NCBI GenBank assembly: GCA_014729025.1
Contig: WJKP01000011.1
Span: 6,500 to 70,499 of the forward strand
Origin: Candidatus Buchananbacteria bacterium
GTDB lineage: Bacteria > Patescibacteriota > Patescibacteriia > CAIXNZ01
Direction: 5' to 3'
Length of the DNA stretch: 64,000 nt
The notes under the pieces: generated by a model
Told to the model about the DNA's origin: nothing
Databases searched by the model: none
What the model saw: the letters and a program-made list of their open reading frames with translations, nothing else
Program-made: the position numbers and the translations under genes
Shown here: piece after piece, positions 16,436 to 52,303 of the stretch
Numbering within the stretch: position 1 is the first letter of the stretch
How the letters are laid out: every line of letters starts with the position of its first letter

Positions 16436-16442
16436 TTTTAAT

Positions 16443-17243: not shown

Positions 17244-17255
17244 TAATAAAATTAT

Positions 17256-18128: not shown

Positions 18129-18169
18129 TATTATATAAAGAAAATTCTAATAGTAATTTAAAATTTATA

Positions 18170-21808: not shown

Positions 21809-23304
21809 CACAAAAAATAAAAATTATTACATTGATCATAGTAATGATCATTTTAATTGTTGGCGGTTTATTATTATATTATTTTAAACCTGCTCCAAGT
21901 ATTAATCTGCCACCGCCAGTGGAAGAAGAAGAAAATTTGCAAACTAGATTGGAAAATGTCGTGGATTTTGGTTTTGTTAGTTCACCTTATACTTTGGATT
22001 CTATTTTAGAGTCAAGTGAATATCAGCAAATAAAACAAGAAGTTCATGATATTTGTTATGATGATAAAGGTAATTTGGGCTTGTATTTTTCTTGTTTAAG
22101 AGCTTTTGATACTTTTGCCGCCAATAAAATTAATAATCAATTACTTAATTTAAATCAGACGGATCAGCAGGATTTATTAACTAATTTGTATGAAATAGAT
22201 GAACGTTATGGGGTTCCAAGTCTGGATATTAGAACGCCTGAAATGATTTTTAGGACGCGAGAAGGTCAGGAATTAGTTAATTATTTTGAAGAAAACGCTA
22301 GTTTGGAGGATTTTAATTTTACCAATAATATTAATGAAATTTTTCAGCGCCAGTCTTTTAAAGAATGGTTAGATGATTTTCATGCTAAAAAACGTGAACT
22401 TTGTTATTTTCCTCCAGAAACTGATATTGCCAGAGATTGTGATTCTTTTACCACTCCTTATGCTAGTACTATTGTAATAAATTTTCTTTATCCGGAGAGA
22501 CAAGAAGAAGAAGTATTAAGTCTAGTTGGTGTTTTAGAACGAGGTATTTATAAAAGTGATGAAGATTTATTAGAAATATATAATAATTTATTGAGCCGTT
22601 ATTATAATGATTTTTTAGATAATTATGTTCAGGAAATGAAAAATAAATATCCGATTTTGGCTAGCGGACAAGTTACTGACTTGAATACTATTAATGATTT
22701 TCTCTTAGATCCTAACGATAGTTTAATTTATCAAGTCGGTAAATTATATTATTATGTGAATTATTTACATGTTGGTTCTAAAGGCAAGGTTAGGGATAAG
22801 CTCAACCAAAATTTAAATGATAAATTTGCAGAAGTAGCGGCTGATTTGGGTATTGACAATGACGATTTAAAGCAATATTTAATAGCAATTATTGGAGATG
22901 AAGAAGAAGTTATTGATCAATTAGTTAGTCAGTATAGAAACCTAAAAGTTAATTATCCAGCTAATGTTAATAAACTGGAAATCAATCCTACATTTATTTT
23001 TTGGGAAAGTATGGTCGAAGATCAGTATTATAATTATTTTACTGATGATTTTAATAATATTGATGCTTATTATGATGATTTGCGAACTTATAGATTGTAT
23101 ACTTATCTCTTGCTTTATTATAGCGATGACTATAAAAGTACTACTAATAGACAAGATGCTTTCGCTGAACGAGGTGAAGATGGCGGTCAAATGCAAAATG
23201 TATTTAAATTTAGCCGTTATATTGAAAGAGATGAATTGGATGAATTAATGAATTATTATAATAAAGAAAGAGGAACCATAATTGATTTGAGTGAAGGTCA
23301 TTAA
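21805..23304 (+). CDS. Membrane-anchored hypothetical protein
   Basis: N-terminal TM 'IITLIIVMIILIVGGLLLYYF', then a 470-aa soluble domain without recognisable motifs. Start overlaps the upstream stop (ATGA). Confidence 0.45.
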   Translation: MTQKIKIITLIIVMIILIVGGLLLYYFKPAPSINLPPPVEEEENLQTRLENVVDFGFVSSPYTLDSILESSEYQQIKQEVHDICYDDKGNLGLYFSCLRAFDTFAANKINNQLLNLNQTDQQDLLTNLYEIDERYGVPSLDIRTPEMIFRTREGQELVNYFEENASLEDFNFTNNINEIFQRQSFKEWLDDFHAKKRELCYFPPETDIARDCDSFTTPYASTIVINFLYPERQEEEVLSLVGVLERGIYKSDEDLLEIYNNLLSRYYNDFLDNYVQEMKNKYPILASGQVTDLNTINDFLLDPNDSLIYQVGKLYYYVNYLHVGSKGKVRDKLNQNLNDKFAEVAADLGIDNDDLKQYLIAIIGDEEEVIDQLVSQYRNLKVNYPANVNKLEINPTFIFWESMVEDQYYNYFTDDFNNIDAYYDDLRTYRLYTYLLLYYSDDYKSTTNRQDAFAERGEDGGQMQNVFKFSRYIERDELDELMNYYNKERGTIIDLSEGH

Positions 23305-23401: not shown

Positions 23402-24769
23402 ATGCCCCAAAATGAGAAAAAAATATTTAAGCAAAAATTTAAATTTTTAGATAAATATTTAGATTTATATAAAAAAGATTATTTGTCAGAATTTAAACTG
23501 GCCAAGGATTTTGTTTTTGAAAGGCTTAATCGCCGTAAAGAATGTACTTTTGATTATCCCCCTTATGTTTATTATAAAGAGGCAATAGATAAAGATCGTA
23601 ATCCTGATAACTTGTTTGACTTATGGCCGGATAAAACACCTTTTGTTATGTGTTTTTATTTTCCTTTCTGCACAAATAAATGCAGTTATTGTACTTTTAC
23701 AAATTTAAAGAAAAATATTGTCTCAGAATTTTCTGATTATTTGAAATATTATAAAAAAGAACTTTTGATGTATAAAGATTTGATTAAAAGAAATAAAATA
23801 AGCCATATTTATATTGGGGGTGGAACCCCGACTTTAATGACCGAGGAGCAATTAGAAGATTTATTAAAATTTATAAAAAAACATTTTTTACCTTATTTGC
23901 TTAAGCCTTTAGACGAGATAGAGTTTACCTGTGAAGCTTCTCCCCCGACTTTAACCGATAAAAAAATTAAAATATTAAAAAAATACGGTGTTAATACCAT
24001 TACTTTAGGTGTTCAGACACTAGATCCTAAGGTTTTAAAAACAATCGGCCGTTATCAGACAAAAGAACAGGTTATAAATGTTTTGCCTAAAATAATCAAG
24101 CTTTTTAAAGTCAATGTTGATATAATTGCCGGTTTACCAGCTAGTAATTTGCAGATTTTCGCTCAGGATTTAAATACGATAGTAAAATTAAAACCGCAGC
24201 ATTTAGGAGTTTATTTATTGACTTTATATGATCATTCTAAATTAGGTCAGTCTGATTATTATGTGCCACGTAAAGATTATCTGCAATATTATGATTTAGC
24301 TTATAAAACTTTATCAAAACAAGGTTATATTCATAGTACTTTTGAAGAATATTCATTGGATCATAAATATCGTTTAATGTATTTAGAAGATTTTCTGGAA
24401 AATAATCTGCATTTAACTACTGGTTTGGGTGACTCTGGTTTTACCGGAACTCATTGGTATAATAATACTGATGATATGGGTAAATATAAAAATTATATTA
24501 AAAATGGATTATTACCAATAGACAAGAAATATAAAATGACGATTGCGGATTTGCAAGTTAAATTTATTATTTATGGTCTTAGAAAATTAAATTTAAATAA
24601 AAAAGAATACCTTAAAATGTTTAATGAACCGATTGAAAAAAGATATTCTTTAGAAATAAACGCTTTAACTGATTTGGGTTTTTTGAAGCACGAGGGTAAT
24701 AAAATAGATTTAACCTATGAAGGCAAAAGAGATTTTGAGTTGATTATGCAGTTTTTTATGAGACTTTAG
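23402..24769 (+). CDS. HemN/HemW-like radical SAM protein
   Basis: 'FPFCTNKCSYCTF' CxxxCxxC. HemN-family 'IYIGGGTPTLM' (GGGTP) motif. C-terminal HemN_C-like region. Confidence 0.75.
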   Translation: MPQNEKKIFKQKFKFLDKYLDLYKKDYLSEFKLAKDFVFERLNRRKECTFDYPPYVYYKEAIDKDRNPDNLFDLWPDKTPFVMCFYFPFCTNKCSYCTFTNLKKNIVSEFSDYLKYYKKELLMYKDLIKRNKISHIYIGGGTPTLMTEEQLEDLLKFIKKHFLPYLLKPLDEIEFTCEASPPTLTDKKIKILKKYGVNTITLGVQTLDPKVLKTIGRYQTKEQVINVLPKIIKLFKVNVDIIAGLPASNLQIFAQDLNTIVKLKPQHLGVYLLTLYDHSKLGQSDYYVPRKDYLQYYDLAYKTLSKQGYIHSTFEEYSLDHKYRLMYLEDFLENNLHLTTGLGDSGFTGTHWYNNTDDMGKYKNYIKNGLLPIDKKYKMTIADLQVKFIIYGLRKLNLNKKEYLKMFNEPIEKRYSLEINALTDLGFLKHEGNKIDLTYEGKRDFELIMQFFMRL

Positions 24770-25553
24770 GCTCTAGTAAAAGCGAGTTATTAATAATTTT
24801 ATTGAAACGATTTTTTTCTATTTGTCGCGTTGATTTATAGGTTTGAAAATTCCCCTTATAAAATGAAGTATAATATTTATTTGTGAATTGCAATGGCTGA
24901 TTTTGTGGGTTTAGGCAATAATTGGGGCAATTTTTAATTATTTTTAAATAATTATTAGCTTGTTTGATTAAAGCTAGTGGACAAGTTCTACTTAAAGAAA
25001 AAATAATATAAGGTGTGTAAAGATTAATTTTAAGATTTTTAAGATTATCTAAAGCGATTCCTTGGCCCAGATTTTCAAGTTCAATTGTATCAATTTCATT
25101 TTTCAGTAACCAATCAGCAAATAAAGGATTATTAATTACATTATAAGTGCAAATTTTATCAAATTTAGTTTTAAAATGAGCATAATATGGATCTTTTTTT
25201 TGATTAGCAATAAAGATGCCGGCAATTAGTTTAATATTTTTATTTTTCAAATAATCCCACCCCCCCCAATCATTAAAAACTAATTCAAAAATATTTTCAG
25301 CTTGATTATTTTTTATGATTTTAATTATTTTATCTAAGTATTCAAAATAATTATTAGGTAATAAAGGCGTAAGTAAGGTTAGTCTTTTTTTATTTTTTTG
25401 GGATTTTTTTAAATATGATTGAAAAATTTCAGGTTGAGGTAATAAAAATGGGCAAGTATTTGAACCAATATAAAAATTATCATATTTCGGTAAATAAGTA
25501 TCAAATTGTTGAGGTGTTAAAATTTGAATAGCTTGGTTAGTCTTTTGGAGCAT
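24756..25553 (-). CDS. U32-family-like protein (possible UbiV/partner-type subunit)
   Basis: 265 aa. Overlaps the next U32 gene by 17 nt. N-terminal 'FYIGSNTCPF' resembles the start of the second U32 module in UbiU/UbiV-type pairs. Weak. Confidence 0.4.
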   Translation of the reverse strand: MLQKTNQAIQILTPQQFDTYLPKYDNFYIGSNTCPFLLPQPEIFQSYLKKSQKNKKRLTLLTPLLPNNYFEYLDKIIKIIKNNQAENIFELVFNDWGGWDYLKNKNIKLIAGIFIANQKKDPYYAHFKTKFDKICTYNVINNPLFADWLLKNEIDTIELENLGQGIALDNLKNLKINLYTPYIIFSLSRTCPLALIKQANNYLKIIKNCPNYCLNPQNQPLQFTNKYYTSFYKGNFQTYKSTRQIEKNRFNKIINNSLLLEPKVS

Positions 25554-26466
25554 AAGGGCAAATATGACAATAGTTTTTTTTAAAAATTATTTGATGTAAT
25601 AATTTAGCTTTTTTTTGAAATTGTAAATGATTAGGATAATTTTGAGCAATATTTTGAGCTTGCTTGATAAATAAAACCATCAGTCCTTTATCCCTGGCTG
25701 ATCTGTCACGGCCAACTATTTTTCCGCTAACAATATTTTTTTGTTCTTTAAAAAGTGATAAAAAACAGGCTCGGCATAGTGTTTTCTGACGAATAATTGT
25801 TTGGAAATTTTTTTCTAATTTTTTATCAATTGAAGTATAAAGCGGTTCTCTTTCACAAACAAATTCAATTCCGTCTGGTTTCATGAAATGGATTGATGAA
25901 CACAACCCATCAATATTAGAACAATTATCATCATAAATAAAAACTTCGAATTCAATTTGAGGCAGATTTTTAGCTAAATTACTAATCTCATTAATTGTCA
26001 GGTTGCGGGGAAGTATAATTCGGTTAATTTTAAAATTCTTACACCAAAATTGCGCTGATTTAGTATTTATAACTTGATCAAGCGAACTTAAATGAATGGG
26101 TAGACTTTTAGTTAATTTTCTTATAAGTTTAATAATAATAGGATCTTTGGCTATAATCGCGTCAGGCTTAATTTCTATGATTTTTTTTAGCTCATTATTT
26201 ATTTGATGTGTACCAGAAAAAATAGTATCAGTATTAAAAACAACATTAACTTTTTTATTATTTTTGCGAGCGGAATTAATGACTTGTTTGGCTTCTAAAA
26301 AAGAAGTAGTATTAGCCAAAATATTGTCCCGACGATTTAAATGGTTGTAAAATTGATTTTTTTTATGCCAATCTTGAGAAAAAATTCCCATATAAAATTC
26401 ATCTGCTCCGTTTTTTATTAAAGCAGGTAATTCAGTATAGCGTGAAATTGGGGCTAAGATTTTCAT
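25537..26466 (-). CDS. Peptidase U32 family protein (Fe-S RlhA/TrhP/UbiU-like)
   Basis: N-terminal 'MKILAPISRYTELPALIKNGADEFYMGIF' matches the U32 signature (M-x-LLAPAG-x-E-x-L-x-A-x-GADAVY-GG). Several downstream Cys could ligate a 4Fe-4S cluster. Confidence 0.65.
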   Translation of the reverse strand: MKILAPISRYTELPALIKNGADEFYMGIFSQDWHKKNQFYNHLNRRDNILANTTSFLEAKQVINSARKNNKKVNVVFNTDTIFSGTHQINNELKKIIEIKPDAIIAKDPIIIKLIRKLTKSLPIHLSSLDQVINTKSAQFWCKNFKINRIILPRNLTINEISNLAKNLPQIEFEVFIYDDNCSNIDGLCSSIHFMKPDGIEFVCEREPLYTSIDKKLEKNFQTIIRQKTLCRACFLSLFKEQKNIVSGKIVGRDRSARDKGLMVLFIKQAQNIAQNYPNHLQFQKKAKLLHQIIFKKNYCHICPYAPKD

Positions 26467-26524: not shown

Positions 26525-27862
26525 ATGGTTAAAAATAATTTATTAATTAAGGAAAAAATAGCTAGTAAACCGAAGTATTGGCTTAGGTTGAGTTATGCTT
26601 GTAATAATAATTGTTTGTTTTGTTTAGATAAAGAGGCACAAAGTAATAATGAGCAATTTGTTTCAGAAAAAGATTTGCAATCAGAAATAAAGCAAGCTTT
26701 AAAAGAAGGATATCGGAAAATTATTTTAAGTGGAGGTGAACCAACAATTCATCCTCGTTTTTTGCATCTTGTGAAATTTTGTCAAAATTTAGGTTTTGAA
26801 AGAATTCAAATTATTACTAATGGCAGAATGTTAGCTTATCGTAAATTTGCCAGACAAACCTTGATAAGCGGGGTCAATGAAGTGACTTTTTCTTTGCATG
26901 GACTTGATGCACAAACCCACGATTATTTAGTCGGAGTTGAAGGAGCTTATGATCAATTAATTCAGGGGTTACATAATATTCGAGCGTCTAATTGCATTAT
27001 AAATATTGATATTGTACTTAATAAAAAAAATATTAAGCAGGTTCATGAGATTATTGATTTTTTTTCTAAAAATTATAGTATTTATGAATATGATCTTTTA
27101 CATTTAATACCTTTTGGTAATGCTTTTAAAAATTTATCAAATTTGGTTTTATCATATAAAGATTATCAGCAAAAAAGCTGGCAGAAAGTTTTGACTTTGG
27201 CAAAGAATGATAAGAGATATTTTATTTGGACTAACCGCTTGCCAGCCCAATATTTAGAAGACCATGAAGCTTTAATCCAAGACCCCCATAAATTATCGGA
27301 TGAATTAAAGGGGCGAAGGCATATGTTTGAAAATTATTTGCAAAATAACAAAGAGCTTGCTTGTAAAGATGGTCAACGTTGTGCTTTTTGTTTTTTGCAT
27401 GATTTTTGTTTGAAGTTATCTCAGTTTAAGGAGAATATTAATTATAAACCTAAATATAATATTAAATTTTTAACTCAAAAAAATTTAAATGAATTAAATT
27501 CTAATAATTTAATTGTAGCAATTAAAAATTTTGAGTTTTTGGAAAAGTTAAAAGACCAAACAGTTAATCTGGATGAGTTCAAGAATAAGACTAAAAACGG
27601 AAATTTAAAATTTATTAATTTACCTTATTGTCTAGCTGGCCAGAATAATCAAGTTGTTTATGATTTTTTGATTTATTTGCCAAAAGTTTTGAATAACAAA
27701 AAACAGATTGATTTGCATAAATTTGCCAAAATGTATATTAGCAATTTATATTATTTGAAATCAGTGAGGTGTGATGATTGTAAATACAATAATCAATGCG
27801 CTGGTTGGCATATTAATTATTTAAGATATTATGGTTTTAAAATTTTAAAACCAGTTAAATAG
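26525..27862 (+). CDS. Radical SAM protein, tandem paralog 1, with C-terminal Cx2Cx5C twitch-like motif and extra Cys-rich insert
   Basis: 'LRLSYACNNNCLFCLD'. 'LSGGEPTIHP'. 'ITNGRML'. C-terminal 'LPYCLAG...CDDCKYNNQCAGWHINYLRYYGF'. Confidence 0.8.
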   Translation: MVKNNLLIKEKIASKPKYWLRLSYACNNNCLFCLDKEAQSNNEQFVSEKDLQSEIKQALKEGYRKIILSGGEPTIHPRFLHLVKFCQNLGFERIQIITNGRMLAYRKFARQTLISGVNEVTFSLHGLDAQTHDYLVGVEGAYDQLIQGLHNIRASNCIINIDIVLNKKNIKQVHEIIDFFSKNYSIYEYDLLHLIPFGNAFKNLSNLVLSYKDYQQKSWQKVLTLAKNDKRYFIWTNRLPAQYLEDHEALIQDPHKLSDELKGRRHMFENYLQNNKELACKDGQRCAFCFLHDFCLKLSQFKENINYKPKYNIKFLTQKNLNELNSNNLIVAIKNFEFLEKLKDQTVNLDEFKNKTKNGNLKFINLPYCLAGQNNQVVYDFLIYLPKVLNNKKQIDLHKFAKMYISNLYYLKSVRCDDCKYNNQCAGWHINYLRYYGFKILKPVK

Positions 27863-27863
27863 T

Positions 27864-28751
27864 ATGAAAGAAAAAAGACTGGAAATTTTCATAACTTTTA
27901 AGTGTAATAACGATTGTCTTTTTTGCGTGGAAAAAACAAATAAGGATAAATATAAGGGTAAACAAATTTTTAGGGATAAACAGCATATTGAAGAAGAATT
28001 GAATAAATATCGCAAGCAAGGTTACACTTATTTGAATTTATTAGGCGGGGAACCTTTTTTAGCGAAAGATTTTTCGACTATTTTGCAGACCTCCAAATCC
28101 TTGGGTTTTGTTGTGGCCTTAGCGACAAATGCCAGTGTCTTATCTTCAGAAAAAATAGCCGAACAATATTTGCCATATATTGATGAATTAATTGTTTCAA
28201 TTCATGGCCATAATAAATTATTAATTAATCAGATTAGTCAAAATCCTAATTTGTATGATAAGTTAATTAAAGGTTTGAATAATATTAAAAAATATTTTAA
28301 AGGCCGGTTATTAAAAGCAAATTGCGTGATTAATAATTTAAATCATAAATATTTACTTGATATTTTAAAATTTATAAATAAATTCAATATAAAAGAAGTT
28401 AATTTAACTTATATGGATATTGATAAATATTGCCAAAATTATGTTGTTAAGATGGAAGATTTGCGTCCTTTGATTAAACCTTTGGTTGATTATAGTGAAC
28501 AACAAAATATGGTTTTGCGTTTTTCTGAATTACCATATTGTGTTTTAGGCGATTATTATTATCTGGCTAATGATTTGTATTTTCAAAATCGGGATAAGTA
28601 TTTTGTTGATGGCAAAAAAGACAAGGTTTATTTTTGGAAAAAATATAAAGGCAAAGTTTGTCAGGATTGCAATGTTACGGATATTTGTAAGGGGCTAAAC
28701 AAGGATTATTATAAACTTTATGGTGATAAAGAATTAATTGCTTTTCAATAA
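27864..28751 (+). CDS. Radical SAM protein, tandem paralog 2
   Basis: 'ITFKCNNDCLFCVEK'. 'LLGGEPFL'. C-terminal 'LPYCVLG...CQDCNVTDICKGLNKDYYKLYG'. Confidence 0.8.
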   Translation: MKEKRLEIFITFKCNNDCLFCVEKTNKDKYKGKQIFRDKQHIEEELNKYRKQGYTYLNLLGGEPFLAKDFSTILQTSKSLGFVVALATNASVLSSEKIAEQYLPYIDELIVSIHGHNKLLINQISQNPNLYDKLIKGLNNIKKYFKGRLLKANCVINNLNHKYLLDILKFINKFNIKEVNLTYMDIDKYCQNYVVKMEDLRPLIKPLVDYSEQQNMVLRFSELPYCVLGDYYYLANDLYFQNRDKYFVDGKKDKVYFWKKYKGKVCQDCNVTDICKGLNKDYYKLYGDKELIAFQ

Positions 28752-29700
28752 TATGAAAAATTTGGAAATAAATATTGGCAAGGCTTGTAATAATAAATGT
28801 AAATTTTGCATGAGTATAAATTCTATTCCTGAATTTTTGCGTTTTGCTGATTTTGCAGATTTAAAAAATGATTTAATTAAATACAAAAAACAAGGTTATG
28901 ATTCTTTGGGTTTTTTGGGCGGGGAAGTCACTTTGTACCCCAAATTAGTTGATTTGGTTAATTTAGCTAAAGAATTAGGATTTAAAGAAATTCATTTGAT
29001 TACTAATGGTCGGAATTTAAAAGACATGGCTTATACGCAGTCCTTGGTTGAAAATGGTATAACTCGTTTTTCTTTATCAATTCATAGTCATTGCGCCCAT
29101 GTAGAAGATGACTTGACTCAAGTTCCTGGTGGTTTTAAGGAAAAAATTCAAGGCCTTAAAAATTTATTAGAATTATCTAATCAAGGAATAATAAAAAAAG
29201 AGATTTGTTTGAATTTGGTTGTTAATAAAAAAAATTATCAAGATTTGGTAAAAACATTCAGTTTTTTTAGCAAATTAGGTGTTAAAAATTTTCGTTTTAA
29301 TTTTATGTGGCCCAGAGGTAATGCAAGTCAATATTTCAAAGAACTTTTGCTTTCTTATAAAGATTTTTTGCCTTATTTAAAGAAATTAATAAATTTAGCC
29401 AAAGTTTTAAGAGTACATTTAGTTTTTGAGGGATTGCCATTTTGTATTTTAAAAGATTTTGATCAAAAAGAAATTAAAAATTATATCGGTGAATTATTGG
29501 ATTTTAAAACTGATGTTTCTGATTTTAATTTTGATAAAAAAGAACGTTATGCTTTTAATTGGCAAGAACGCAAGAAAAACGAATTAAAAGAAAAAAGAGC
29601 AGAATGTGAGAAATGTTTTTATAATTCCATTTGTGAAGGTGTTTGGAAAGAATATATAAAATTTTATGGTTGGGAAGAATTTCAGCCAGTTATTAAATAA
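28738..29700 (+). CDS. Radical SAM protein, tandem paralog 3
   Basis: 'NIGKACNNKCKFCMS'. 'FLGGEVTLYP'. 'ITNGRNL'. C-terminal 'LPFCILKDF...CEKCFYNSICEGVWKEYIKFYGW'. Alternative start at 28753 (MKNLEI). Confidence 0.8.
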   Translation: MLFNNMKNLEINIGKACNNKCKFCMSINSIPEFLRFADFADLKNDLIKYKKQGYDSLGFLGGEVTLYPKLVDLVNLAKELGFKEIHLITNGRNLKDMAYTQSLVENGITRFSLSIHSHCAHVEDDLTQVPGGFKEKIQGLKNLLELSNQGIIKKEICLNLVVNKKNYQDLVKTFSFFSKLGVKNFRFNFMWPRGNASQYFKELLLSYKDFLPYLKKLINLAKVLRVHLVFEGLPFCILKDFDQKEIKNYIGELLDFKTDVSDFNFDKKERYAFNWQERKKNELKEKRAECEKCFYNSICEGVWKEYIKFYGWEEFQPVIK

Positions 29701-29702
29701 TT

Positions 29703-30632
29703 ATGGCAAATTTAGGTTATATTCAATTAAATAGAGTTTGTAATCAAGCCTGTCTTTTTTGTTCCAATCCTGATACTGGGGCAAGCTTAAATTTTATTGA
29801 ATTTAAGGATAAGGTTGCAGATTTGATTAAAAGAAATTATGATGGAGTTATTTTAACCGGCGGCGAGCCGACCTTGATAGATTATTTGCCAGAAGCAATT
29901 AAATTTTGCACTGAGAAGAAAATTAATTCTCGTTTAATTACTAATGGGCAAAATACAGCTAATTTTGAATATTTGAAAAAGTTAAAAGATTCTGGTTTGA
30001 ATCTGATGCATGTTTCTTTATATTCTTATAAAACTAAAATTCAAAATTATTTAAGTCAAAATAATGATTCTTATAATAATATTATTAAGACTTTAAAAAA
30101 TGCAACTAAATTAAATATCGTAATTAATATTAATACTGTAATTAATAAGTATAATGCTGATCATTTGGATAAAACCGTTTTTTTTATAATAAGAAATTTT
30201 CCGCAAATAAAGCATTTTGTTTTTAATAATCTTGACCCATATATGAATCGAGCTTCGCAGAATAAACATACCATACCAGGTTTATTTGATTTTGAAATAT
30301 CATTAAATAAAGCAATGCAAATATTATTTAAAAATAATAAAACTTTTCGGGTAGAACGAGTACCTTTATGTTATATGGGCGATTTTCCGCAGTTTAGCAC
30401 TGAAACAAGAAAAATTATTAAACAAGAAGAAAGAGTTGTTCATTTTTTGGATGAAAAGGGTCTGATTAGGCAGGATACCGATTCATTTAAATATAAAAAA
30501 GGTAAAGTTTGTAAAAGATGTAATTTAAATGATATTTGTGCCGGCTTATATTCTTTAGGTGAATATTTTGCGGAAAAAGAATTAAAGCCTGTCAAGAATG
30601 TTACTAAAGAACAAGTTAAAGCAAAATTATGA
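29703..30632 (+). CDS. Radical SAM protein, tandem paralog 4
   Basis: 'QLNRVCNQACLFCSN'. 'LTGGEPTL'. 'ITNGQN'. C-terminal 'VPLCYMGDF...CKRCNLNDICAGLYSLGEYF'. Confidence 0.8.
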   Translation: MANLGYIQLNRVCNQACLFCSNPDTGASLNFIEFKDKVADLIKRNYDGVILTGGEPTLIDYLPEAIKFCTEKKINSRLITNGQNTANFEYLKKLKDSGLNLMHVSLYSYKTKIQNYLSQNNDSYNNIIKTLKNATKLNIVININTVINKYNADHLDKTVFFIIRNFPQIKHFVFNNLDPYMNRASQNKHTIPGLFDFEISLNKAMQILFKNNKTFRVERVPLCYMGDFPQFSTETRKIIKQEERVVHFLDEKGLIRQDTDSFKYKKGKVCKRCNLNDICAGLYSLGEYFAEKELKPVKNVTKEQVKAKL

Positions 30633-31309
30633 ATATTGATTTATTAACAAAATGCGAATGTAATTGTGTTTTTTGTGATAAGCAGACTGTTAAGGGTGTT
30701 GAATCTATTAATGAACTAAAAGATATTTTGGAGGATTTTAATGAGTCAATAATTTTTTTAGGTGGACAAGAACCATTTAATTTTAAGGATTTAGATTTAT
30801 TAATTGCTTTTTTAAAAAATAAAGCGCCTGATAGCAAAATAATAATAAAATCTTCAGGTTGTTTTGATTATAAAAAATTGCCCCGGGTTTTATTTGAAAA
30901 AATCGAGATAATAGAATTGCCATTATATTCTTGCTCAAGTGAAATACACAATAAAATAATGGGGAATAATCAGGCTTGGGAACTGCTTTTTGCTTTTGTT
31001 GATTTTTTAAAAGAAAATAATTTACAGAATAAAATTTTGTTTCATACAATGGTTTTAAAGGATAATTTTAAAGAATTATTTGCTATTTATGATTTTGTTT
31101 TAGACAATTTACCTGATCAGCAGTATTTTAAGATTATTTACCCCTTGAAAAATATAAGTAAAATAGAATATGAAAAAATTATTGTACCGCAAGATTTAGT
31201 TATTAAGCAGCTATTTGCTGATTTCCCAGAAGATATATTGCAAAATAAAATTGAATTAATAAATTTCCAACCTTCTAAAGAACAAATTAAATTTAGAAAT
31301 GTTTTATAA
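30629..31309 (+). CDS. Small radical SAM-like protein (mini-rSAM, 226 aa)
   Basis: 'LTKCECNCVFCDK' contains CxxxCxxC. 'FLGGQEPF'. No C-terminal auxiliary Cys motif. Confidence 0.6.
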   Translation: MNIDLLTKCECNCVFCDKQTVKGVESINELKDILEDFNESIIFLGGQEPFNFKDLDLLIAFLKNKAPDSKIIIKSSGCFDYKKLPRVLFEKIEIIELPLYSCSSEIHNKIMGNNQAWELLFAFVDFLKENNLQNKILFHTMVLKDNFKELFAIYDFVLDNLPDQQYFKIIYPLKNISKIEYEKIIVPQDLVIKQLFADFPEDILQNKIELINFQPSKEQIKFRNVL

Positions 31310-31314
31310 ATTTT

Positions 31315-33105
31315 ATGAGTCGTGTTGATATAAAAATAGGTTTTGCTTGCAATAATATGTGCCAATTTTGTGTGCAAGGAGATAAAAGGTTTAAATTTAA
31401 AAACCGTACGCTTAATGAAATAAAAAAAGCGTTAAAAACAGCTAACGCGCAAGGCAGTCAGGGGGTTGTTTTTACTGGTGGTGAACCAACATTACATGAC
31501 AATATTTTAGAGGCAGTTAAGTATGCTAATGATTTAGGTTTTCAATCAATTCAGTTGCAAACTAATGGTCGGATGCTGGCTTATTTTGGTTTTTGTCAAA
31601 AATTAATAAAAGCCGGTATAAATGAATTTTCACCAGCCTTGCATGCTTCAATACCCCAAATTCATGATGAATTAACCAGTAGTCCTGGCGCTTGGGAACA
31701 AGTTGTACAGGGTATTAAAAATTTAAAATTATTAAATCAGTTTGTTTTAACAAATACTGTGATAACCAGCAAGAATTATAAAGATTTACCTGCTTTAGCC
31801 AAGTTATTTATTGATTTGGGCGTGGATCAATTCCAGTTTGCTTTTGTTCATATTTTGGGCAGCGCAGCTCAGCATAAAGACTGGCTGGTGCCTCAAAAAT
31901 CAGAGATTATGCCTTACGTAAAAAAGGGGTTAGATGTTGGCATTAAAGCAAACAAGAGGGTTATGACAGAAGCAATTCCGTATTGCTTAATGACTGGTTA
32001 TGAGGATTACATTGCAGAAAAGATAATGCCTGAAACACAAGTTGTTGATGCTGAAGGCGTGATCGCCAGTTATGCTAAATATCGGCATACAGAAGGTAAG
32101 GTTAAGAGCAAAGAATGTGAGACATGCAAATATTTTAAAATTTGCGAAGGTCCGTGGAAAGAATATCCGGAAATTTACGGTTGGAATGAATTTATACCAA
32201 TAAAGAAATTATCAATAAATAAAAAAAAACAAATAAATAATAATTTTAAAAAAAATAAAAATGATATAGCCTTTTTTAATTTTGTTGGTAAATTTAATTT
32301 AATTGATTTTAAGGAGTATTTGCCAAATTTAATCTCATTTAAAATAATAAAAAATGAAAAAAATAGTTATTGCGTATTATTAAAAAATGGCGATGATGAT
32401 GTTTTTTTAAAAACTTATCGATGGCAAGGGAATAAATTTTATAATTTTGTTAAAATTTATAATTCTTTATCAAAAGAAATCAATTTGCCACAGATAATCT
32501 CTATATCTGATTTTGTCGTGCCAGAAACAAATGAAAAAATTTTCCTTGTATTAACTGACTACCTGAAAGATTTGGTTAATAATAAAGATAAATTTAAAGA
32601 AGCAAATCTTAAATTAATAATTGATCAGGTCGTAAGATTGCATCAAATTGATAATGTTATTATTAAAAATAATATGTTTAATAATAAATTTTTTTTAGAT
32701 CAAATGATTATAAAAAATAATCCCATTGATATTAATAAAATCATTTATTATTTAAAAGATAAGCTTGATAAAATTTCAGCCCAGGGTTTGTGTCATTTTG
32801 TTTTAAAACCTGAACATTTTATTTTTAATAAAAATAAAGTATACATGATTGATCTTGATAATATAAGTTATGATTATTTGATATTCGATTTAGCTGCTTT
32901 AATTGAAAGATTTTTATATAAAGATAAATATTCTTATACAAGAAAATATCTAAAAGATTTTGTAACATTATATTTTAAAAAAAATAAAAAAGTTAAATTT
33001 AATAAGAATGTATTGTATCAAGCCTGTAAGTTGATGGCTTATTATCAAAATGGTAGAGCTTTTCAGGATTTTGGACCGCTTGATGAATTTTTCAATGAAT
33101 TATAA
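31315..33105 (+). CDS. Radical SAM (paralog 5) fused to a C-terminal kinase-like (APH/WaaP-like phosphotransferase fold) domain
   Basis: N-terminal domain: 'IGFACNNMCQFCVQG', 'FTGGEPTLH', 'QTNGRML', 'IPYCLM...CETCKYFKICEGPWKEYPEIYGW'. C-terminal 300 aa: 'GLCHFVLKPEHFIF...VYMIDLDNISYDYLIFDLA', paralogous to 34627-35901. The catalytic-loop Asp is replaced (HFV instead of HFD). Confidence 0.75.
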   Translation: MSRVDIKIGFACNNMCQFCVQGDKRFKFKNRTLNEIKKALKTANAQGSQGVVFTGGEPTLHDNILEAVKYANDLGFQSIQLQTNGRMLAYFGFCQKLIKAGINEFSPALHASIPQIHDELTSSPGAWEQVVQGIKNLKLLNQFVLTNTVITSKNYKDLPALAKLFIDLGVDQFQFAFVHILGSAAQHKDWLVPQKSEIMPYVKKGLDVGIKANKRVMTEAIPYCLMTGYEDYIAEKIMPETQVVDAEGVIASYAKYRHTEGKVKSKECETCKYFKICEGPWKEYPEIYGWNEFIPIKKLSINKKKQINNNFKKNKNDIAFFNFVGKFNLIDFKEYLPNLISFKIIKNEKNSYCVLLKNGDDDVFLKTYRWQGNKFYNFVKIYNSLSKEINLPQIISISDFVVPETNEKIFLVLTDYLKDLVNNKDKFKEANLKLIIDQVVRLHQIDNVIIKNNMFNNKFFLDQMIIKNNPIDINKIIYYLKDKLDKISAQGLCHFVLKPEHFIFNKNKVYMIDLDNISYDYLIFDLAALIERFLYKDKYSYTRKYLKDFVTLYFKKNKKVKFNKNVLYQACKLMAYYQNGRAFQDFGPLDEFFNEL

Positions 33106-33111
33106 TTATAT

Positions 33112-34623
33112 ATGATTGATATATATTATAAAAAAGAACTTCAGAGTATTATTGCACCCATGCAGATAGGGCGCCAATATTTTAATTGGGATTTTAAGAA
33201 AATCATTTTAAATCGTATCGGCCCCTATTTTTTACAGGAAATAATTTTTTATTTTTTAAAAGATAATAATAATGCGTTAATGATATATTTGAGAAAAAAT
33301 AATGAATATTATCAATTGGATTACCAAGTTTTAAATGATGAATTATCAGCAAAAAAAATTTTTATTTTATTTGATAATTTATTAATAAAAAAACAAATTA
33401 TTCTTGAAAGAAGTTTAGTTTTTGCAGCCTTGCAAAACAATGAAAAAAATTTTTTAAATCGATTATCTCAAATTGATGAGAAAGAATTAATCAAATTATT
33501 ATCATTACCAGAGATTAAATTTATAAATAATAATGTAGAAGATAGTGATATTAAAATTTTATTTGATTTTAATTTAAATAGTTTTGGCCTTGGCGATTAT
33601 TTGATGAGCGATAGGAGTTTAATTAAAAATGGTTCAAATAATTTTATAATAACTGATTTGTATTCAGTTTTTGAGGGTAATAAAAATTTCAATGCTATTT
33701 ATTCGGATTTGAATTTATGTTTTTCTGAAAATGGGTTATTAGATAAGACCGTTGAACTTATTGATTATAACACCAAGCTTGATTATTTGGATGAAAATTT
33801 AAAAAATACTTATCATTTATTTTTATATAATCAATTTTATAAATTAATAAAAAATTCTTTAAAATTATTTAATTTTAAAGAATACCAGATGAATCCTCAA
33901 AAAGGGATTGATTTGTTATTATCAGAAATTAATAAAATAAAGAAAATAAATATACATTCCTTAGATTCCATGAATGATGAGAAAAATGAATTATATTTAA
34001 ATAATAAAGAATTTATAAAAATTATTGGTAAGCAAATTAAAAAAAATAAAAAAATCATTGGGATTAGCGCAAATTATGCCGAAGGTTTTCCTGATAATGC
34101 GCCTAAAGGCTGGGCCTTGGCTAATTGGTTGGAATTAATTAATTTATTAAGTCAAAAATTTAATGATTTGCATTTTTTTTTATTGCCAGTTAATAATGAA
34201 GATATTTTAAATATAGAAATATCTGAAAATAATTATCATTTTAAAATATTTAATAATTTAAAAGATAAAGTTGATTTGGTTTTTATTGATGAATTGATTA
34301 AAAAATATATTTTTAAAAAAAGCATATTTGATAATATTTTATTAAAAAATACAAGTTTAGAATTTTTAAAAACAGCAATAAGTTTTTGTGATTTGGTAAT
34401 AGCTTTGGATAGTGCTCCGGCTCATATGGCTGCTTCGCTAGAAGTGCCTGTTGTTTCTTTGTTTAGTGAAAAAGGCGATATTAGAAAATTCAAGCCATTG
34501 GGTGATAAATCTTTTACCTTGCATAAAGAAAAAGAAGGGGAATATTTAAATATTAATAATATTTCAGCTCAAGAAGTTTTTGATCTATTAATTAAAGAAA
34601 ATTTAATTATCAAACGAAAATAA
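33112..34623 (+). CDS. Glycosyltransferase family 9-like protein (heptosyltransferase / BAHT-type GT-B fold)
   Basis: C-terminal domain 'KIIGISANYAEGFPDNAPKGWALANWLELINLL...LVIALDSAPAHMAASLEVPVVSLFS' matches the GT9 donor-binding motif (D-S/T-G-P-M-H-L-A-A-A...P-V-V-A-L-F-G). The N-terminal 300 aa are divergent. Confidence 0.55.
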   Translation: MIDIYYKKELQSIIAPMQIGRQYFNWDFKKIILNRIGPYFLQEIIFYFLKDNNNALMIYLRKNNEYYQLDYQVLNDELSAKKIFILFDNLLIKKQIILERSLVFAALQNNEKNFLNRLSQIDEKELIKLLSLPEIKFINNNVEDSDIKILFDFNLNSFGLGDYLMSDRSLIKNGSNNFIITDLYSVFEGNKNFNAIYSDLNLCFSENGLLDKTVELIDYNTKLDYLDENLKNTYHLFLYNQFYKLIKNSLKLFNFKEYQMNPQKGIDLLLSEINKIKKINIHSLDSMNDEKNELYLNNKEFIKIIGKQIKKNKKIIGISANYAEGFPDNAPKGWALANWLELINLLSQKFNDLHFFLLPVNNEDILNIEISENNYHFKIFNNLKDKVDLVFIDELIKKYIFKKSIFDNILLKNTSLEFLKTAISFCDLVIALDSAPAHMAASLEVPVVSLFSEKGDIRKFKPLGDKSFTLHKEKEGEYLNINNISAQEVFDLLIKENLIIKRK

Positions 34624-34626
34624 TTT

Positions 34627-35901
34627 ATGGAAATTGGGATTAGAGATAAAAATGAAAACGATTTAGTCAAAAAAATTATTAATTATAATAAAATTAATAA
34701 TTTAGTAAAACCGATAAAAAGATATGAAATTACGGCGATTGATTTGGTTAATAAAAATTTATATTTAAAAATAAAAAATAACGAGACAGGTGATGTTTTG
34801 CGAATAGTTTTAACTACCAATAAGAGGAAAGATTTATTAAGTATAGATAATAAATTGTTTTTTTACTATTACTCAGATTATTTGAATAAATTTGATAATT
34901 TGCTTTGTAAAAATATAATGAAAATCATGTATAGTAATATTAATAATAATCGAGAATTATTTAATACTGCCATTGATTTAATAAAAAATGAAAATATTTT
35001 TGATAGAGATTTTGAATATTTTGAGGATGAAGATACCGGGCGTAAATTACAAGTAAATAAAAAAAATATAGCGAAATTAGAAAAAAATATTAATTTAAAT
35101 TTAATAAAAAACAAATGGCCCAATATGAATGTTGCTAATGAAATATTTAGTTATGATGAAACAAGACTTCGTTATAAATTAATTGATAAAAATAATCAAG
35201 CTTATTTTTTGAAAATTTTTACCGGTGCCAATAATGATATTGATAATTTAATAAAAATAAATAAATTATTAGCTGATAAAATAAATGTGCCGAAGGTTAT
35301 TGATTTTCAAAAAGATGATAAGTTTTATTGGGTATTATATGAATTTTTAGATCCCGCCAAGATTCTTGATAAACAAAAAATAAATTTAGCAGTTAAAGAA
35401 ATAGTAAAATTTCATAATGTTAAGTTTGATATGGGAAATCAACCAGAAGGTAGTAAATTTAATAAAGTTAAAAATAATTATTATTTATATAAAGAAGAAA
35501 TTATTGATAAGGATATTTTAGAAAAAGCATTAAATTATTTGCAGAATAATCTTGGCCCAAAAGGTTGGTGCCATTTTGATTTAGAAATGAGGCATTTTAT
35601 TTATTCTAATGATAAAATGTATTTAACTGATATTGATTCTATTAAATATGATTATATAGTTTTAGATCTCGGTTTATTTATTCGCTATTTACTTAAAAAA
35701 AATCAGTCGCATTTCATAGCGCCATTAATTGAATTATATTTAAAAAATAATAAGTCTTATAAATTTGATAAAAAAATATTATTTTATGCCACTATTATTA
35801 TGGTATATTATAAAGAGGATGAAAATTTAATTAGTAATCATAATTTACATAAAAATTTGAATCAAGAAATTAATTTAATTAGAAATTATTTTAATATTTA
35901 A
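34627..35901 (+). CDS. Kinase-like protein (APH/WaaP/Kdo-kinase-like phosphotransferase fold)
   Basis: 'GWCHFDLEMRHFIYSNDKMYLTDIDSIKYDYIVLDLG' gives H-x-D catalytic loop plus a DID metal-binding motif. Paralogous to the C-terminal domain of the rSAM fusion. Confidence 0.5.
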   Translation: MEIGIRDKNENDLVKKIINYNKINNLVKPIKRYEITAIDLVNKNLYLKIKNNETGDVLRIVLTTNKRKDLLSIDNKLFFYYYSDYLNKFDNLLCKNIMKIMYSNINNNRELFNTAIDLIKNENIFDRDFEYFEDEDTGRKLQVNKKNIAKLEKNINLNLIKNKWPNMNVANEIFSYDETRLRYKLIDKNNQAYFLKIFTGANNDIDNLIKINKLLADKINVPKVIDFQKDDKFYWVLYEFLDPAKILDKQKINLAVKEIVKFHNVKFDMGNQPEGSKFNKVKNNYYLYKEEIIDKDILEKALNYLQNNLGPKGWCHFDLEMRHFIYSNDKMYLTDIDSIKYDYIVLDLGLFIRYLLKKNQSHFIAPLIELYLKNNKSYKFDKKILFYATIIMVYYKEDENLISNHNLHKNLNQEINLIRNYFNI

Positions 35902-35903
35902 AT

Positions 35904-37412
35904 ATGATACAATTAATTATAAATTATTCTATTGTTTCGCTTATTATTATAATAGGTTTGATAGTTACCCTTACTGATTTTCGAGAAAGCAGAATAAAGA
36001 ATAAATATATTAAATTAGGGATTTATATAGGGTTAATTTATTATATTATATTATTTTTCATTACTGTTTTGTCGCGTTTTTATGCTTTATCTTATTATTT
36101 CCCCCCTCAATATTATTTATTTATTTTAATTAATACTTTAATTGGTTTTATTTTGGCTTTTATTTTGTGGAATCTTAAATTATGGGCCGGAGGCGATGCC
36201 AAGCTTTTTACCCTTTATGTTTTTTTAATACCTTTATTTTTTTATTCAGAAGCATATTTGCCATTTTTCCCAGCTATTAATTTATTAATAAATATAATAA
36301 TTCCTATTTTTATTTATTTATTAATTAAGATGTTAATTTATCCAATCAGCTTATTTATTAGTCATTTGAAAAATCCCAAATTGGTCAAGGAATATTTTAA
36401 AAAACATAGAGAACAAAATAAGTTTGATAAATCAAAAATAAAAGAATATCTAAATAGTGGTCTTAGTTTTTTATTAATTTTAATTTTTTTCCAATTATTA
36501 AGAAATAAAGTTAATGAATTTTTAGATCCTTATTTGGGTAATATGGTTTATGCCACTTATTTTTTTATGGGTTTTGTTATTTTTAAACCATTGAGAGTTT
36601 TTTTAAAAGAAAAAGTTTTGCTTGTTTTAATTGGTGTATCGGCTTATTTTATTATTAGTTACTTTTATTTTCATGAACAGGTTTTTGCAGAATTGCATAA
36701 AGTTTTTGCCTTGCAAATGATTTTTATGATGTCTTATTTTTATATTTTTAAATATGGCCGAGCTTTGGGACAATTTTTATATAATTCAGCAGAAGTTAAA
36801 ATGGTTCCGGTTGAAGAATTAAGTTCTGGCAATTATATTAATAAAGGTTACATAAGAAAAATAATGGGGAATAGGAATAATTTAGATAATTTCAAACAAG
36901 ATATTGAAAATGTTTTGTCAGAAGAAGAACATAATAACTTAGCCCAATTGATTGAGGAAAAGGTGGGGCAAACTGGTAATGAAAAAAAACAATATAAGAT
37001 AATTTCTGTTTTCAGGAATTTACGTCCAGAGAGTGCTTTTAAAATTGCAAAACAGATATTTGAATATAAAAAACAAAAAAAACAAAGAAAAGAATTACTG
37101 GAAACAGTAAAAATAAAATTAAATGATAAGCAGAATAAGACCTTAGATAATATTTTAAATAACAATGATGATATTGATAATTTTTTAAAAAAAATTAAGG
37201 GGAAATTAAGCGAAGAACAAGCTCTAAGATTAAAAAGCATGATTGAAGAAAGGAATAAAGAGGTTGAGGATCAGGGCTTAGAGCCGATTAAACATATTAT
37301 ACTTCATAAAACATTTTCTTTTGCGCCTTTTATGTTATTGGGCGTTATAATTACTTTATTAACCAAAAGTTCAATTATTCATTTGATTTATGAATATATT
37401 TTGCACCGTTAG
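35904..37412 (+). CDS. A24-family (prepilin peptidase/TadV-like) aspartic peptidase homolog with long C-terminal Lys/Glu-rich coiled-coil domain
   Basis: First catalytic-Asp motif 'LTDFRESRIKN' (cf. D-L-R-x-R-R-I-P-N). Second 'LWAGGDAKLFTLYVFLIPL' (cf. GGGDVKLL). About 8 TM helices in the first 290 aa, then a 200-aa charged cytoplasmic tail and a final TM helix. Confidence 0.6.
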   Translation: MIQLIINYSIVSLIIIIGLIVTLTDFRESRIKNKYIKLGIYIGLIYYIILFFITVLSRFYALSYYFPPQYYLFILINTLIGFILAFILWNLKLWAGGDAKLFTLYVFLIPLFFYSEAYLPFFPAINLLINIIIPIFIYLLIKMLIYPISLFISHLKNPKLVKEYFKKHREQNKFDKSKIKEYLNSGLSFLLILIFFQLLRNKVNEFLDPYLGNMVYATYFFMGFVIFKPLRVFLKEKVLLVLIGVSAYFIISYFYFHEQVFAELHKVFALQMIFMMSYFYIFKYGRALGQFLYNSAEVKMVPVEELSSGNYINKGYIRKIMGNRNNLDNFKQDIENVLSEEEHNNLAQLIEEKVGQTGNEKKQYKIISVFRNLRPESAFKIAKQIFEYKKQKKQRKELLETVKIKLNDKQNKTLDNILNNNDDIDNFLKKIKGKLSEEQALRLKSMIEERNKEVEDQGLEPIKHIILHKTFSFAPFMLLGVIITLLTKSSIIHLIYEYILHR

Positions 37413-50294: not shown

Positions 50295-50298
50295 TAAT

Positions 50299-52299: not shown

Positions 52300-52303
52300 A
52301 TAA

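Follow-up and report, generated by a model that had tools for sequence, protein, structure and literature searches.

A radical SAM protein with a C-terminal kinase-fold domain and an adjoining glycosyltransferase-kinase pair in an Hxs-type gene run of a Candidatus Buchananbacteria bacterium

In this study, we analyzed a 64,000-nt stretch of DNA from a Candidatus Buchananbacteria bacterium of the Candidate Phyla Radiation (CPR) (contig WJKP01000011.1, positions 6,500 to 70,499; the whole stretch is called the window here, and coordinates count from its first letter). The window is AT-rich (21-39% GC in 2-kb windows). Its region 31315-35901 contains three open reading frames (ORFs), confirmed with exactly the boundaries of the initial annotation and all on the + strand. 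They code for a radical S-adenosylmethionine (rSAM) protein with a C-terminal kinase-fold domain, a GT9-like glycosyltransferase, and a standalone kinase-like paralog of that domain, and they form the variable 3' part of a co-directional gene run, 26525-37412. We put at about an even chance that the trio is an add-on sugar and phosphate tailoring unit on an Hxs/rSAM maturation locus, rather than a pathway of the lipopolysaccharide (LPS) core type. This reading is based on domain identities, paralogy, the loss of a catalytic Asp, an operon-like layout, synteny, co-occurrence, and purifying selection. As far as the sequences tell, it is plausible that such a module carries out glycosyl and phosphoryl tailoring, with a pseudokinase as its scaffold. 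The spacers from the fusion to the GT9-like gene, from there to the kinase gene, and from the kinase gene to the following A24-like gene are 6, 3, and 2 nt, and the features are as follows.

31315..32214, + strand: radical SAM domain of the fusion (residues 1-300), Pfam Radical_SAM, HxsC4-like, terminal rSAM of the array
32215..33105, + strand: predicted APH-fold pseudokinase domain of the fusion (residues 301-596), assigned by paralogy with the standalone kinase
33112..34623, + strand: GT9-like glycosyltransferase, 503 aa, Pfam PF01075
34627..35901, + strand: standalone APH-family kinase-like protein, 424 aa, Pfam APH and AlphaFold2 model
35904..37412, + strand: polytopic membrane protein, 502 aa, with an N-terminal A24-like domain, Pfam Peptidase_A24

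The C-terminal 296 aa of the fusion, preceded by a linker rich in Lys and Asn, share 32% identity over 222 aa with the standalone kinase (BLASTP, E 6e-23). The domain itself scored below the Pfam APH (PF01636) cut-off (19.6 vs 23.2 bits), and its APH membership is only indirect, by way of this paralogy. The β-3 Lys and the metal-binding Asp are retained in both proteins of the window, in VFLKTY (32401-32418) and MIDLDN (residues 511-516; 32845-32862) of the fusion, and in YFLKIF (35203-35220) and LTDIDS (residues 333-338; 35623-35640) of the standalone kinase. The catalytic loops differ. In the fusion the loop reads CHFVLKPEHF (residues 493-502; 32791-32820), with Val in place of Asp and His in place of Asn, while the standalone kinase has CHFDLEMRHF (residues 315-324; 35569-35598), which keeps the Asp and likewise has His for Asn. 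In an alignment of 11 sequences (the two proteins of the window and nine relatives), the family consensus is GLCHFDLxxxNFI...IDFD, and the catalytic Asp is present in 10 of the 11 members, the exception being the Val of the fusion. The initial annotation had described an rSAM protein with a kinase-fold domain of about 300 aa that lacks the catalytic Asp, and a standalone paralog that keeps it; both descriptions are borne out by the Pfam, BLASTP, and motif results. It had not mentioned the His that replaces the usual catalytic-loop Asn in both proteins, a change also found in three other members of the family. The fused domain is most likely a non-catalytic binding or scaffolding domain, judging from these motifs, and its ligand could be the substrate protein, a phosphorylated intermediate, a nucleotide, or a partner enzyme.

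We also considered whether the fusion could be an artefact of assembly or of a frameshift. This was rejected, because the ORF is continuous, an identical 596-aa protein is on record, and six orthologs have the same two-domain length. The identical proteins stand in NCBI under a Candidatus Buchananbacteria MAG, so that the fusion is not confined to the window. There is a sharp GC break inside the fusion ORF, with 35.4% in the rSAM half and 19.9% in the kinase-fold half. The latter value is matched by those of the GT9-like gene (21.9%) and the kinase gene (20.0%), in keeping with a replacement of the C-terminal domain and rapid evolution of the accessory genes.

The rSAM half of the fusion matches Pfam Radical_SAM at residues 7-164 (79.3 bits), with CxxxCxxC at residues 12-19 (31348-31371) and a C-terminal CxxCx5C motif at 32116-32145. 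Its NCBIfam scores were 159.9 bits for HxsC4 (NF038332, cut-off 500) and 89.1 bits for HxsC (TIGR03977, cut-off 267.9). Since these two families are the best-scoring ones, though under their cut-offs, the fusion and the rSAM proteins of the array are called HxsC-like here. The terminal rSAM is 62-76% identical to its orthologs in related CPR loci and outranks the nearby cysS in conservation (74% vs 50% identity in the comparison with locus L004), and by these alignments it appears as the most conserved protein of the cluster. Hundreds of homologs of this half were found at 50-76% identity. Many of them are fused elsewhere to a second rSAM, GT2, methyltransferase, TPR, or HemN-like rSAM domain. 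Another group of 17 rSAM homologs (P0030-type) carries a C-terminal domain of ~320 aa with repeated K-x-Y-F or K-x-Y-K-I-Y-E-like strands, which was not kinase-like by hhalign or Pfam and had no Pfam match.

The closest relatives of the fusion are six proteins (P0002, P0003, P0004, P0005, P0009, and P0011) with 62-75% identity in the rSAM half. They carry a C-terminal domain of 260-305 aa that belongs to a sequence type unlike that of the window; it had no Pfam match, and hhalign comparisons with the kinase family gave E 0.27 and 0.009 with a probability <5%. The fold of this second type was revealed by structure prediction only. An AlphaFold model from the six sequences (pLDDT 88.9, pTM 0.85) matched YtaA (2q83, CotS family), homoserine kinase II (2ppq), the N-acetylhexosamine kinase NahK, and APH enzymes in Foldseek, with E 2e-9 to 1e-7 and query-normalised template-modelling (TM) scores of ~0.6. 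This predicted kinase fold is even more degenerate, as four residues, YHNL, stand where the kinase has the 8-residue loop HFDLEMRH. The terminal rSAM is thus predicted to have a fused kinase-fold domain in at least seven proteins and two sequence types. The idea of the initial annotation that the degenerate domain serves as a scaffold gains support from the six orthologs with their more degenerate domains, and such a role would still be one that we infer. The orthology covers the rSAM halves but not the C-terminal halves, and the simplest history is therefore a domain replacement. The precomputed Pfam annotation of all seven fusions gives Radical_SAM only, and the rSAM-pseudokinase architecture is unannotated in domain databases.

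The initial annotation knew of no rSAM-kinase fusion of this kind. That statement has to be narrowed, as there are the six further orthologs and also a catalogued viperin-kinase family, pVip-kinase (PADLOC PDLC02905), in which an rSAM enzyme is likewise fused to or associated with a kinase. This is the only catalogued rSAM-kinase fusion that we met, and it is different. The known kinases linked to viperins are nucleotide kinases, not APH-fold domains. In PADLOC, which gave rSAM-domain matches to pVip models only, the rSAM proteins of the window matched pVip models at 48-71 bits (49 for the fusion and 71 for 28738-29700), compared with 160-179 bits for HxsC4. A viperin identity was rejected for them, the lower pVip scores being read as similarity of the common rSAM core. 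As far as we found, the recurrent rSAM-kinase-fold fusion in two unrelated sequence types is apparently new.

The standalone kinase matches Pfam APH above the cut-off (37.4 vs 23.2 bits, residues 179-372). It consists of an N-terminal docking-type domain (residues 1-~135; 34627-35031) and a kinase domain (residues ~150-424). An AlphaFold2 model built on the 11-sequence alignment had a mean pLDDT of 80.2, and its top Foldseek matches in the PDB were the spectinomycin kinase APH(9)-Ia, the amicoumacin kinase AmiN, APH(3') enzymes, fructosamine-3-kinase, and the choline kinase LicA (E 1e-11 to 1e-8, target-normalised TM scores 0.5-0.6). Almost all of the 50 Foldseek matches listed were APH-type or related small-molecule kinases, and a profile search of PDB sequences gave AmiN, YtaA, and choline kinases. 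No Pfam match of the kinase to the Kdo/WaaP family (PF06293) was found at E<=0.1; WaaP was neither among the 50 Foldseek matches listed nor among the PDB profile matches at E<=0.01, and CotH was not among the matches listed in either search. The model therefore puts the C-terminal-type domain, represented by the standalone protein, inside the protein-kinase-like superfamily, as the initial annotation had supposed, and the kinase-fold proteins of the window are predicted to belong to its APH branch, not to the WaaP branch. The standalone kinase is probably active.

These structural relatives bear on the possibility that the protein is a small-molecule kinase, either an anomeric sugar kinase of the NahK/AmgK type feeding a donor pool or an antibiotic or metabolite kinase, with the glycosyltransferase acting on a small molecule or lipid. 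Kinases of this kind account for every top match in the structural and profile searches (APH(9), amicoumacin, choline, and fructosamine kinases, and NahK for the fused type). The gene neighborhoods and the family itself point away from it, as a nucleotidyltransferase or other sugar-activation gene was found in none of the loci, and the family is tiny and confined to these rSAM clusters (in a search of 1.84 billion, 62 representatives had E values under 1e-3, and 8 of them under 1e-10). A word-indexed homolog search returned one relative of the kinase only. A scan for related loci with five kinase sequences gave a single locus in genome contigs, which was already known, and four short loci in metagenomes. 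Moreover, APH-fold enzymes are known to phosphorylate ribosomal peptides (PMC9486802). A further argument comes from the N-terminal domain. In the AlphaFold2 model these ~135 residues form two helices, a five-stranded sheet, and two helices; the fusion is without the domain, and no similarity was found to HxsD or to the N-terminal part of the two GT9-like proteins. A 373-aa protein of a related locus (L004:7383-8504) has a homologous domain in its first ~135 residues (33% identity to the window kinase), and the remainder of that protein scores just above the Pfam cut-off for GT2 (23.5 vs 23.3 bits). We read the domain as a candidate docking or substrate-recognition domain that is modular across two tailoring enzymes. 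Because the kinase shares it with a GT2 enzyme from the same type of cluster, the tailoring enzymes would dock on a common macromolecule and not on free metabolites. Taken together, a small-molecule role seems very unlikely.

The third protein of the trio, the GT9-like one, matches Pfam Glyco_transf_9 (PF01075) at 41.2 bits (cut-off 22, E 1.5e-10). The GT9 assignment of the initial annotation is upheld by this score. It does not extend over the whole protein, because only the donor-binding residues 407-470 (34330-34521) match, corresponding to profile positions 165-227 of 247; the motif for donor binding, LDSAPAHMAASLEVPVVSLFS, is found at 34405-34467. Read by eye, a GD-loop-like FGLGDYLMS (residues 158-166; 33583-33609) and a K-x-W...L motif near residue 330 are also present. 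They follow an N-terminal extension of ~145 aa whose fold is unassigned. Residues 339-456 gave a colinear but weak hhalign match (E 0.013) to the GT9 fragment of locus L008. No homolog beyond the protein itself was found in a word-indexed search of 5.8 billion proteins, and phmmer against PDB sequences gave nothing significant. All NCBIfam heptosyltransferase equivalogs were missed (12-28 bits vs cut-offs of 135-569), the top scores being 28.4 vs 467, 25.0 vs 170, 24.7 vs 185, and 22.0 vs 135.

The initial annotation had framed the trio as a heptosyl/phosphoryl module like the LPS inner core, in which a heptosyltransferase would put heptose on Ser residues of the SHG tail of a neighboring precursor, and a WaaP-like kinase would phosphorylate the sugar. 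Several observations agree with this, including the GT9 match in the donor-binding region, the weak matches to heptosyltransferases I, II, and III, the adjacency and co-conservation of kinase and glycosyltransferase, and the known ability of bacterial autotransporter heptosyltransferases (BAHT) to act on Ser in protein repeats (PMC4358343). The framing is not supported by the kinase, which is of the APH/AmiN/choline-kinase/YtaA type and not of the Kdo/WaaP type, and for this reason the analogy with the LPS core is superficial. In addition, the equivalog cut-offs were all missed by more than 100 bits, and no gene for ADP-heptose or other nucleoside-diphosphate sugars was found within the 64-kb window. 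The four-Cys iron finger of the BAHT enzymes is absent, as the protein has only two Cys. Finally, heptose is not implied, because the partner glycosyltransferase is interchangeable among loci, being of the GT9, GT2, or GT1-like type. We therefore regard an LPS-core-like role as highly improbable. The likeness to WaaC/WaaF/WaaQ with WaaP/WaaY comes down to a GT9-type donor-binding motif beside an enzyme of the protein-kinase-like fold, and differs in the missed equivalogs, the APH-type kinase, the variable glycosyltransferase, and the lack of LPS or ADP-heptose genes nearby. TibC and Aah are similar in being GT-B enzymes with an extra N-terminal domain that potentially act on Ser of a repetitive protein (PMC4358343). 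The protein of the window differs from them in having neither the iron finger nor an autotransporter substrate, and it matches GT9 generally rather than the BAHT enzymes.

The comparison with related loci covered about 12 loci from one CPR clade, many on short contigs, and all syntenic loci lie 5' of cysS. Their gene contents are as follows.

L012: HxsD, HxsB, HxsA with (SHG)7, five rSAMs, fusion, A24-like, cysS; contiguous
L011: rSAM array, fusion, A24-like, cysS; no glycosyltransferase
L002: as L011, plus a truncated or split kinase-like gene and a PEP-utilizers protein inside the array
L005: rSAM, standalone kinase, rSAM, fusion, PEP-utilizers, A24-like
L004: unfused terminal rSAM (74%), weak GT9-like, GT2 with the kinase N-domain, short A24, kinase, A24-like, cysS
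L014: unfused terminal rSAM (70%), GT1-like (sub-threshold), kinase
L001: GT9-like (83% identical C-terminal fragment), kinase (60%), A24-like (70%)
L008: GT9 (40.9 bits), then kinase
L009: kinase, GT1-like (sub-threshold), A24-like
L007: kinase, 517-aa ORF, 458-aa ORF, which we take from size and position to be the A24-like gene and cysS

In all seven loci where the terminal rSAM ortholog is visible, a kinase-fold partner is present. The partner is both fused and standalone in the window, fused and of the second sequence type in L002, L005, L011, and L012, and a standalone kinase with a canonical HxDxxxxN loop together with an unfused rSAM in L004 and L014. The pairing of glycosyltransferase and kinase pointed out in the initial annotation recurs, as a glycosyltransferase accompanies the standalone kinase, whose catalytic residues are canonical or nearly so, in six of the seven loci with visible flanks. 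The glycosyltransferase type differs by locus, being GT9-like in the window and L001, GT9 in L008, a weak GT9-like protein plus GT2 in L004, and GT1-like in L009 and L014. Two loci with only a fused pseudokinase, L011 and L012, are without a glycosyltransferase, and L012 has no standalone kinase either. From this distribution, the kinase and glycosyltransferase appear to be an accessory unit gained and lost together. Against L001, the ratio of nonsynonymous to synonymous substitution (dN/dS) was lowest for the GT9 fragment (0.09), followed by the A24-like gene (0.15) and the kinase (0.25); these values are approximate because dS is near 1, but they indicate purifying selection on all three genes.

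Two observations on phosphoryl transfer concern the loci with a fused domain of the second type. PEP-utilizers (phosphohistidine swivel) proteins are encoded at L002:6830-7666 and L005:4677-5618, the latter between the fusion and the A24-like gene, which is the position of the GT9/kinase pair in the window. Phosphoryl transfer might be a theme that recurs among these clusters. At L002:5036-5912, a kinase-like gene is split into ORFs of 209 and 89 aa, with part of the catalytic region seemingly gone, and a second assembly, L003, has it in identical form. We take it for a probable decaying copy; the terminal rSAM of this genome bears the fused pseudokinase.

The conservation of the A24-like gene raises the question of which partner the kinase serves. 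Its product scores 28.2 bits for Pfam Peptidase_A24 (cut-off 26.5), and orthologs with 53-70% identity are encoded in L001, L002, L004, L005, L009, L011, and L012. They lie directly 3' of the kinase, glycosyltransferase, or fusion gene, or, in L005, 3' of the PEP-utilizers gene. The GT9-like protein and the kinase might thus serve this membrane protein on another target, for instance an envelope glycoconjugate or a protein of the pilin-like or surface type, and merely adjoin the Hxs/rSAM array, the fused domain being a separate story. Consistent with this, the kinase gene is directly, or one glycosyltransferase gene away, 5' of the A24-like gene in the window, L001, L004, L007, and L009; both Asp motifs of the A24-like protein are intact (TDFRESRIKN at 35973-36002 and AGGDAKLF at 36186-36209); and secreted Cys-rich proteins are encoded 5' of hxsD. 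However, the A24-like gene is equally conserved in L002, L011, and L012, which have no kinase/glycosyltransferase pair, and there it follows the rSAM fusion directly. The gene therefore belongs with the rSAM array. The fusion itself also ties the kinase family physically to an rSAM, and in L005 and L014 the kinase gene is among or adjoining the rSAM genes. On balance, service to another target is rather unlikely.

Directly 5' of the fusion lies an array of five rSAM genes, with gaps of a few nt or small overlaps, whose orthologs are syntenic in L002, L004, L005, and L014. The top NCBIfam matches of all five are HxsC or HxsC4, every one under the cut-off. Together with the genes further upstream, they are as follows.

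18098-18646, + strand: HxsD, TIGR03976 at 58.8 bits (cut-off 50)
18651-18851, + strand: small second HxsD-like ORF, weak likeness to the start of HxsD
18888-20372, + strand: HxsB, TIGR03978 at 514.9 bits (cut-off 370)
20336 or 20387 to 20839, + strand: HxsA-like precursor with an N-terminal transmembrane segment and a C-terminal (SHG)9 tail
26525-27862, + strand: rSAM array gene (HxsC/HxsC4-like), Pfam Radical_SAM and NCBIfam
27864-28751, + strand: rSAM array gene (HxsC/HxsC4-like), Pfam Radical_SAM and NCBIfam
28738-29700, + strand: rSAM array gene (HxsC/HxsC4-like), Pfam Radical_SAM and NCBIfam
29703-30632, + strand: rSAM array gene (HxsC/HxsC4-like), Pfam Radical_SAM and NCBIfam
30629-31309, + strand: rSAM array gene (HxsC/HxsC4-like), Pfam Radical_SAM and NCBIfam

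The HxsA-like precursor scored just under the model cut-offs (48.9 vs 55 bits for HxsA4 and 45.3 vs 65 bits for HxsA3). HxsD, HxsB, and a His-Xaa-Ser repeat protein, the combination that defines an HXS system, are thus encoded together. A further rSAM, a HemN-like rSAM, and a divergent U32 pair lie between this core and the array, and the A24-like gene is the last of the cluster, followed by cysS. We read the run 26525-37412 as part of a CPR-specific, greatly expanded Hxs rSAM protein-maturation locus, comprising HxsD, HxsB, the HxsA-like precursor, nine rSAM proteins, and a membrane protein resembling prepilin peptidases. L012 supports this identity of the locus, as the same core adjoins the rSAM array and the fusion there.

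In its canonical form, the HXS system (HxsA-D, TIGR03976-03979) comprises four genes in the order HxsD-B-C-A, with 99.7% of cases in Pseudomonadota, and has recently been described in E. coli as an rSAM-matured antiphage system whose product blocks phage DNA entry; HxsB and HxsC reportedly mature HxsA, and the modification was mapped to a Ser/His motif (PMC13128918). The locus of the window is similar in its HxsD and HxsB equivalogs, its (SHG)9 His-Xaa-Ser repeats, and its rSAMs matching best to HxsC or HxsC4. It differs in its CPR host and in its nine rSAM proteins, none of which reaches the HxsC cut-off, and it adds the U32 pair, the HemN-like rSAM, the glycosyltransferase, the kinase-fold proteins, and the A24-like membrane protein. 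The precursor also has a transmembrane segment instead of a recognised peptidoglycan-binding domain. Although the Hxs system, the APH fold, and GT9 are each known, the combination of the three in a CPR bacterium and the modular kinase/glycosyltransferase add-on are apparently new, as far as we found. As a relative of HXS, the locus of this ultra-small CPR bacterium is much elaborated, combining nine rSAM proteins with enzymes of the sugar- and phosphate-transfer type.

A tailoring unit on this locus might work as follows in the scheme that we infer, including its substrate, its order of steps, the atom phosphorylated or glycosylated, and the scaffold role. The terminal HxsC4-like rSAM would work with an APH-fold partner, which the window contains twice, fused and standalone. 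The fused copy, with nucleotide- and metal-binding residues retained and the catalytic base lost, would take a binding or scaffold role, while the standalone kinase and the predicted GT-B glycosyltransferase would add phosphate and sugar to the macromolecule on which the rSAMs also act. The best candidate for this substrate would be the HxsA-like protein, whose Ser/His-rich (SHG)9 tail contains nine Ser. The phosphate acceptor could be either Ser or the sugar. The A24-like membrane peptidase might then process or export the product. This scheme draws on reports that the APH-like CaoK phosphorylates Ser/Thr of a ribosomal peptide, with a second APH-family protein, CaoX, in the same class V lanthipeptide cluster (PMC9486802), and that the BAHT enzymes are WaaC-related GT-B enzymes glycosylating repetitive proteins (PMC4358343).

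Several points weigh against a tailoring unit acting on HxsA. The precursor gene is 11-15 kb upstream, the divergent U32 pair lies between it and the array, and the proposed link of the kinase and glycosyltransferase to HxsA comes from genomic context. The kinase has its most constant neighbor in the A24-like membrane protein rather than in the Hxs core, and its top structural relatives are small-molecule kinases. The His in place of Asn leaves the activity of the standalone kinase uncertain, and the GT9 assignment rests on 64 residues. Neither a phospho-Ser lyase nor a sugar-nucleotide gene was found in the cluster by Pfam and NCBIfam. Finally, the sample of loci on which the co-occurrence was counted is small.

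A bolder version would have the terminal HxsC-like rSAM need an APH-fold (pseudo)kinase as a substrate-recognition domain or phospho-reader, with the radical chemistry on the (SHG)n repeats coupled to Ser phosphorylation and glycosylation, and with the kinase fold recruited at least twice, in two unrelated sequence types. We consider it distinctly unlikely. If true, it would be a three-way rSAM, phosphorylation, and glycosylation maturation pathway with no described counterpart. The tailoring unit as outlined above would, if true, bring post-translational chemistries together in a new way on a His/Ser repeat protein, give the pseudokinase a testable role as an rSAM accessory domain, and point to surface or defence proteins that may matter to the episymbiotic lifestyle of CPR bacteria. 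If it is false, the reading of an LPS core in a CPR bacterium is still set aside.

Class V lanthipeptide and thioamitide clusters (LanK: CaoK/LxmK/TvaC; CaoX) are similar in placing APH-fold enzymes in a ribosomal-peptide modification cluster, with two APH-family proteins and a Ser-rich substrate (PMC9486802); of the pair in the window, one has the catalytic Asp and one is without it. The window differs in that no HopA1/OspF-like lyase, Cys decarboxylase, or cyclase was detected, in that the non-catalytic copy is fused to an rSAM, and in that the sequences are alike only at the level of the general APH family. The HopA1/lyase family had no match in the proteins of 16.4-37.4 kb, where 21805-23304 and 24756-25553 remain unassigned. 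CotS/YtaA and the APH-fold small-molecule kinases provide the best structural matches, together with a weak NCBIfam CotS match. However, identity is 11-18%, and neither the N-terminal domain nor the rSAM fusion is a feature of those families.

Several other features of the surrounding region were observed. The unlisted ORF between hxsD and hxsB (18651-18851) codes for 66 aa, MRIIKFNKKIYRPEAIKQ...DEFANYALGLMS, and has an ortholog at L012:664-864. It weakly resembles the start of HxsD (hhalign E 0.003) and could represent an additional, minimal partner protein of the HxsD type. In the HxsA-like precursor, the N-terminus (20387-20500) is nearly the same as in L012 but the middle of the protein differs, which fits a processed leader or anchor; a link between the A24-like membrane protein and the processing of this leader or anchor is speculation. 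On the - strand between the Hxs core and the array, 24756-26466 codes for a U32 family protein (UbiU/TrhP-like, Pfam 101 bits) and a 265-aa protein, and a U32 gene also lies 5' of the array in L002. This pair is a possible O2-independent hydroxylase component of the pathway. Directly 5' of hxsD, three consecutive + strand genes (15791-18128) code for proteins with N-terminal signal-like hydrophobic segments, the last two having Cys-rich C-termini (e.g. ...CCYLNIAF and ...CCRIDNCPGGGGNCF). Pfam and NCBIfam searches gave no match for any of the three, which could be further substrates or surface partners. A promoter and terminator scan gave counts equal to those of shuffled controls.

Further downstream, 46672-63939 is a mobile or defence-like island, as read from the translations. 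It contains a large restriction-modification-type methyltransferase/endonuclease-like gene (46672-49539) and an HNH-like gene, followed on the minus strand by a serine recombinase (50983-52299), a terminase-like gene (52396-53940), and a ParB/methylase-like gene (54354-55679). The island continues with DUF262-like and helicase-like genes, and the GC skew flips between 50 and 56 kb, within the island region.

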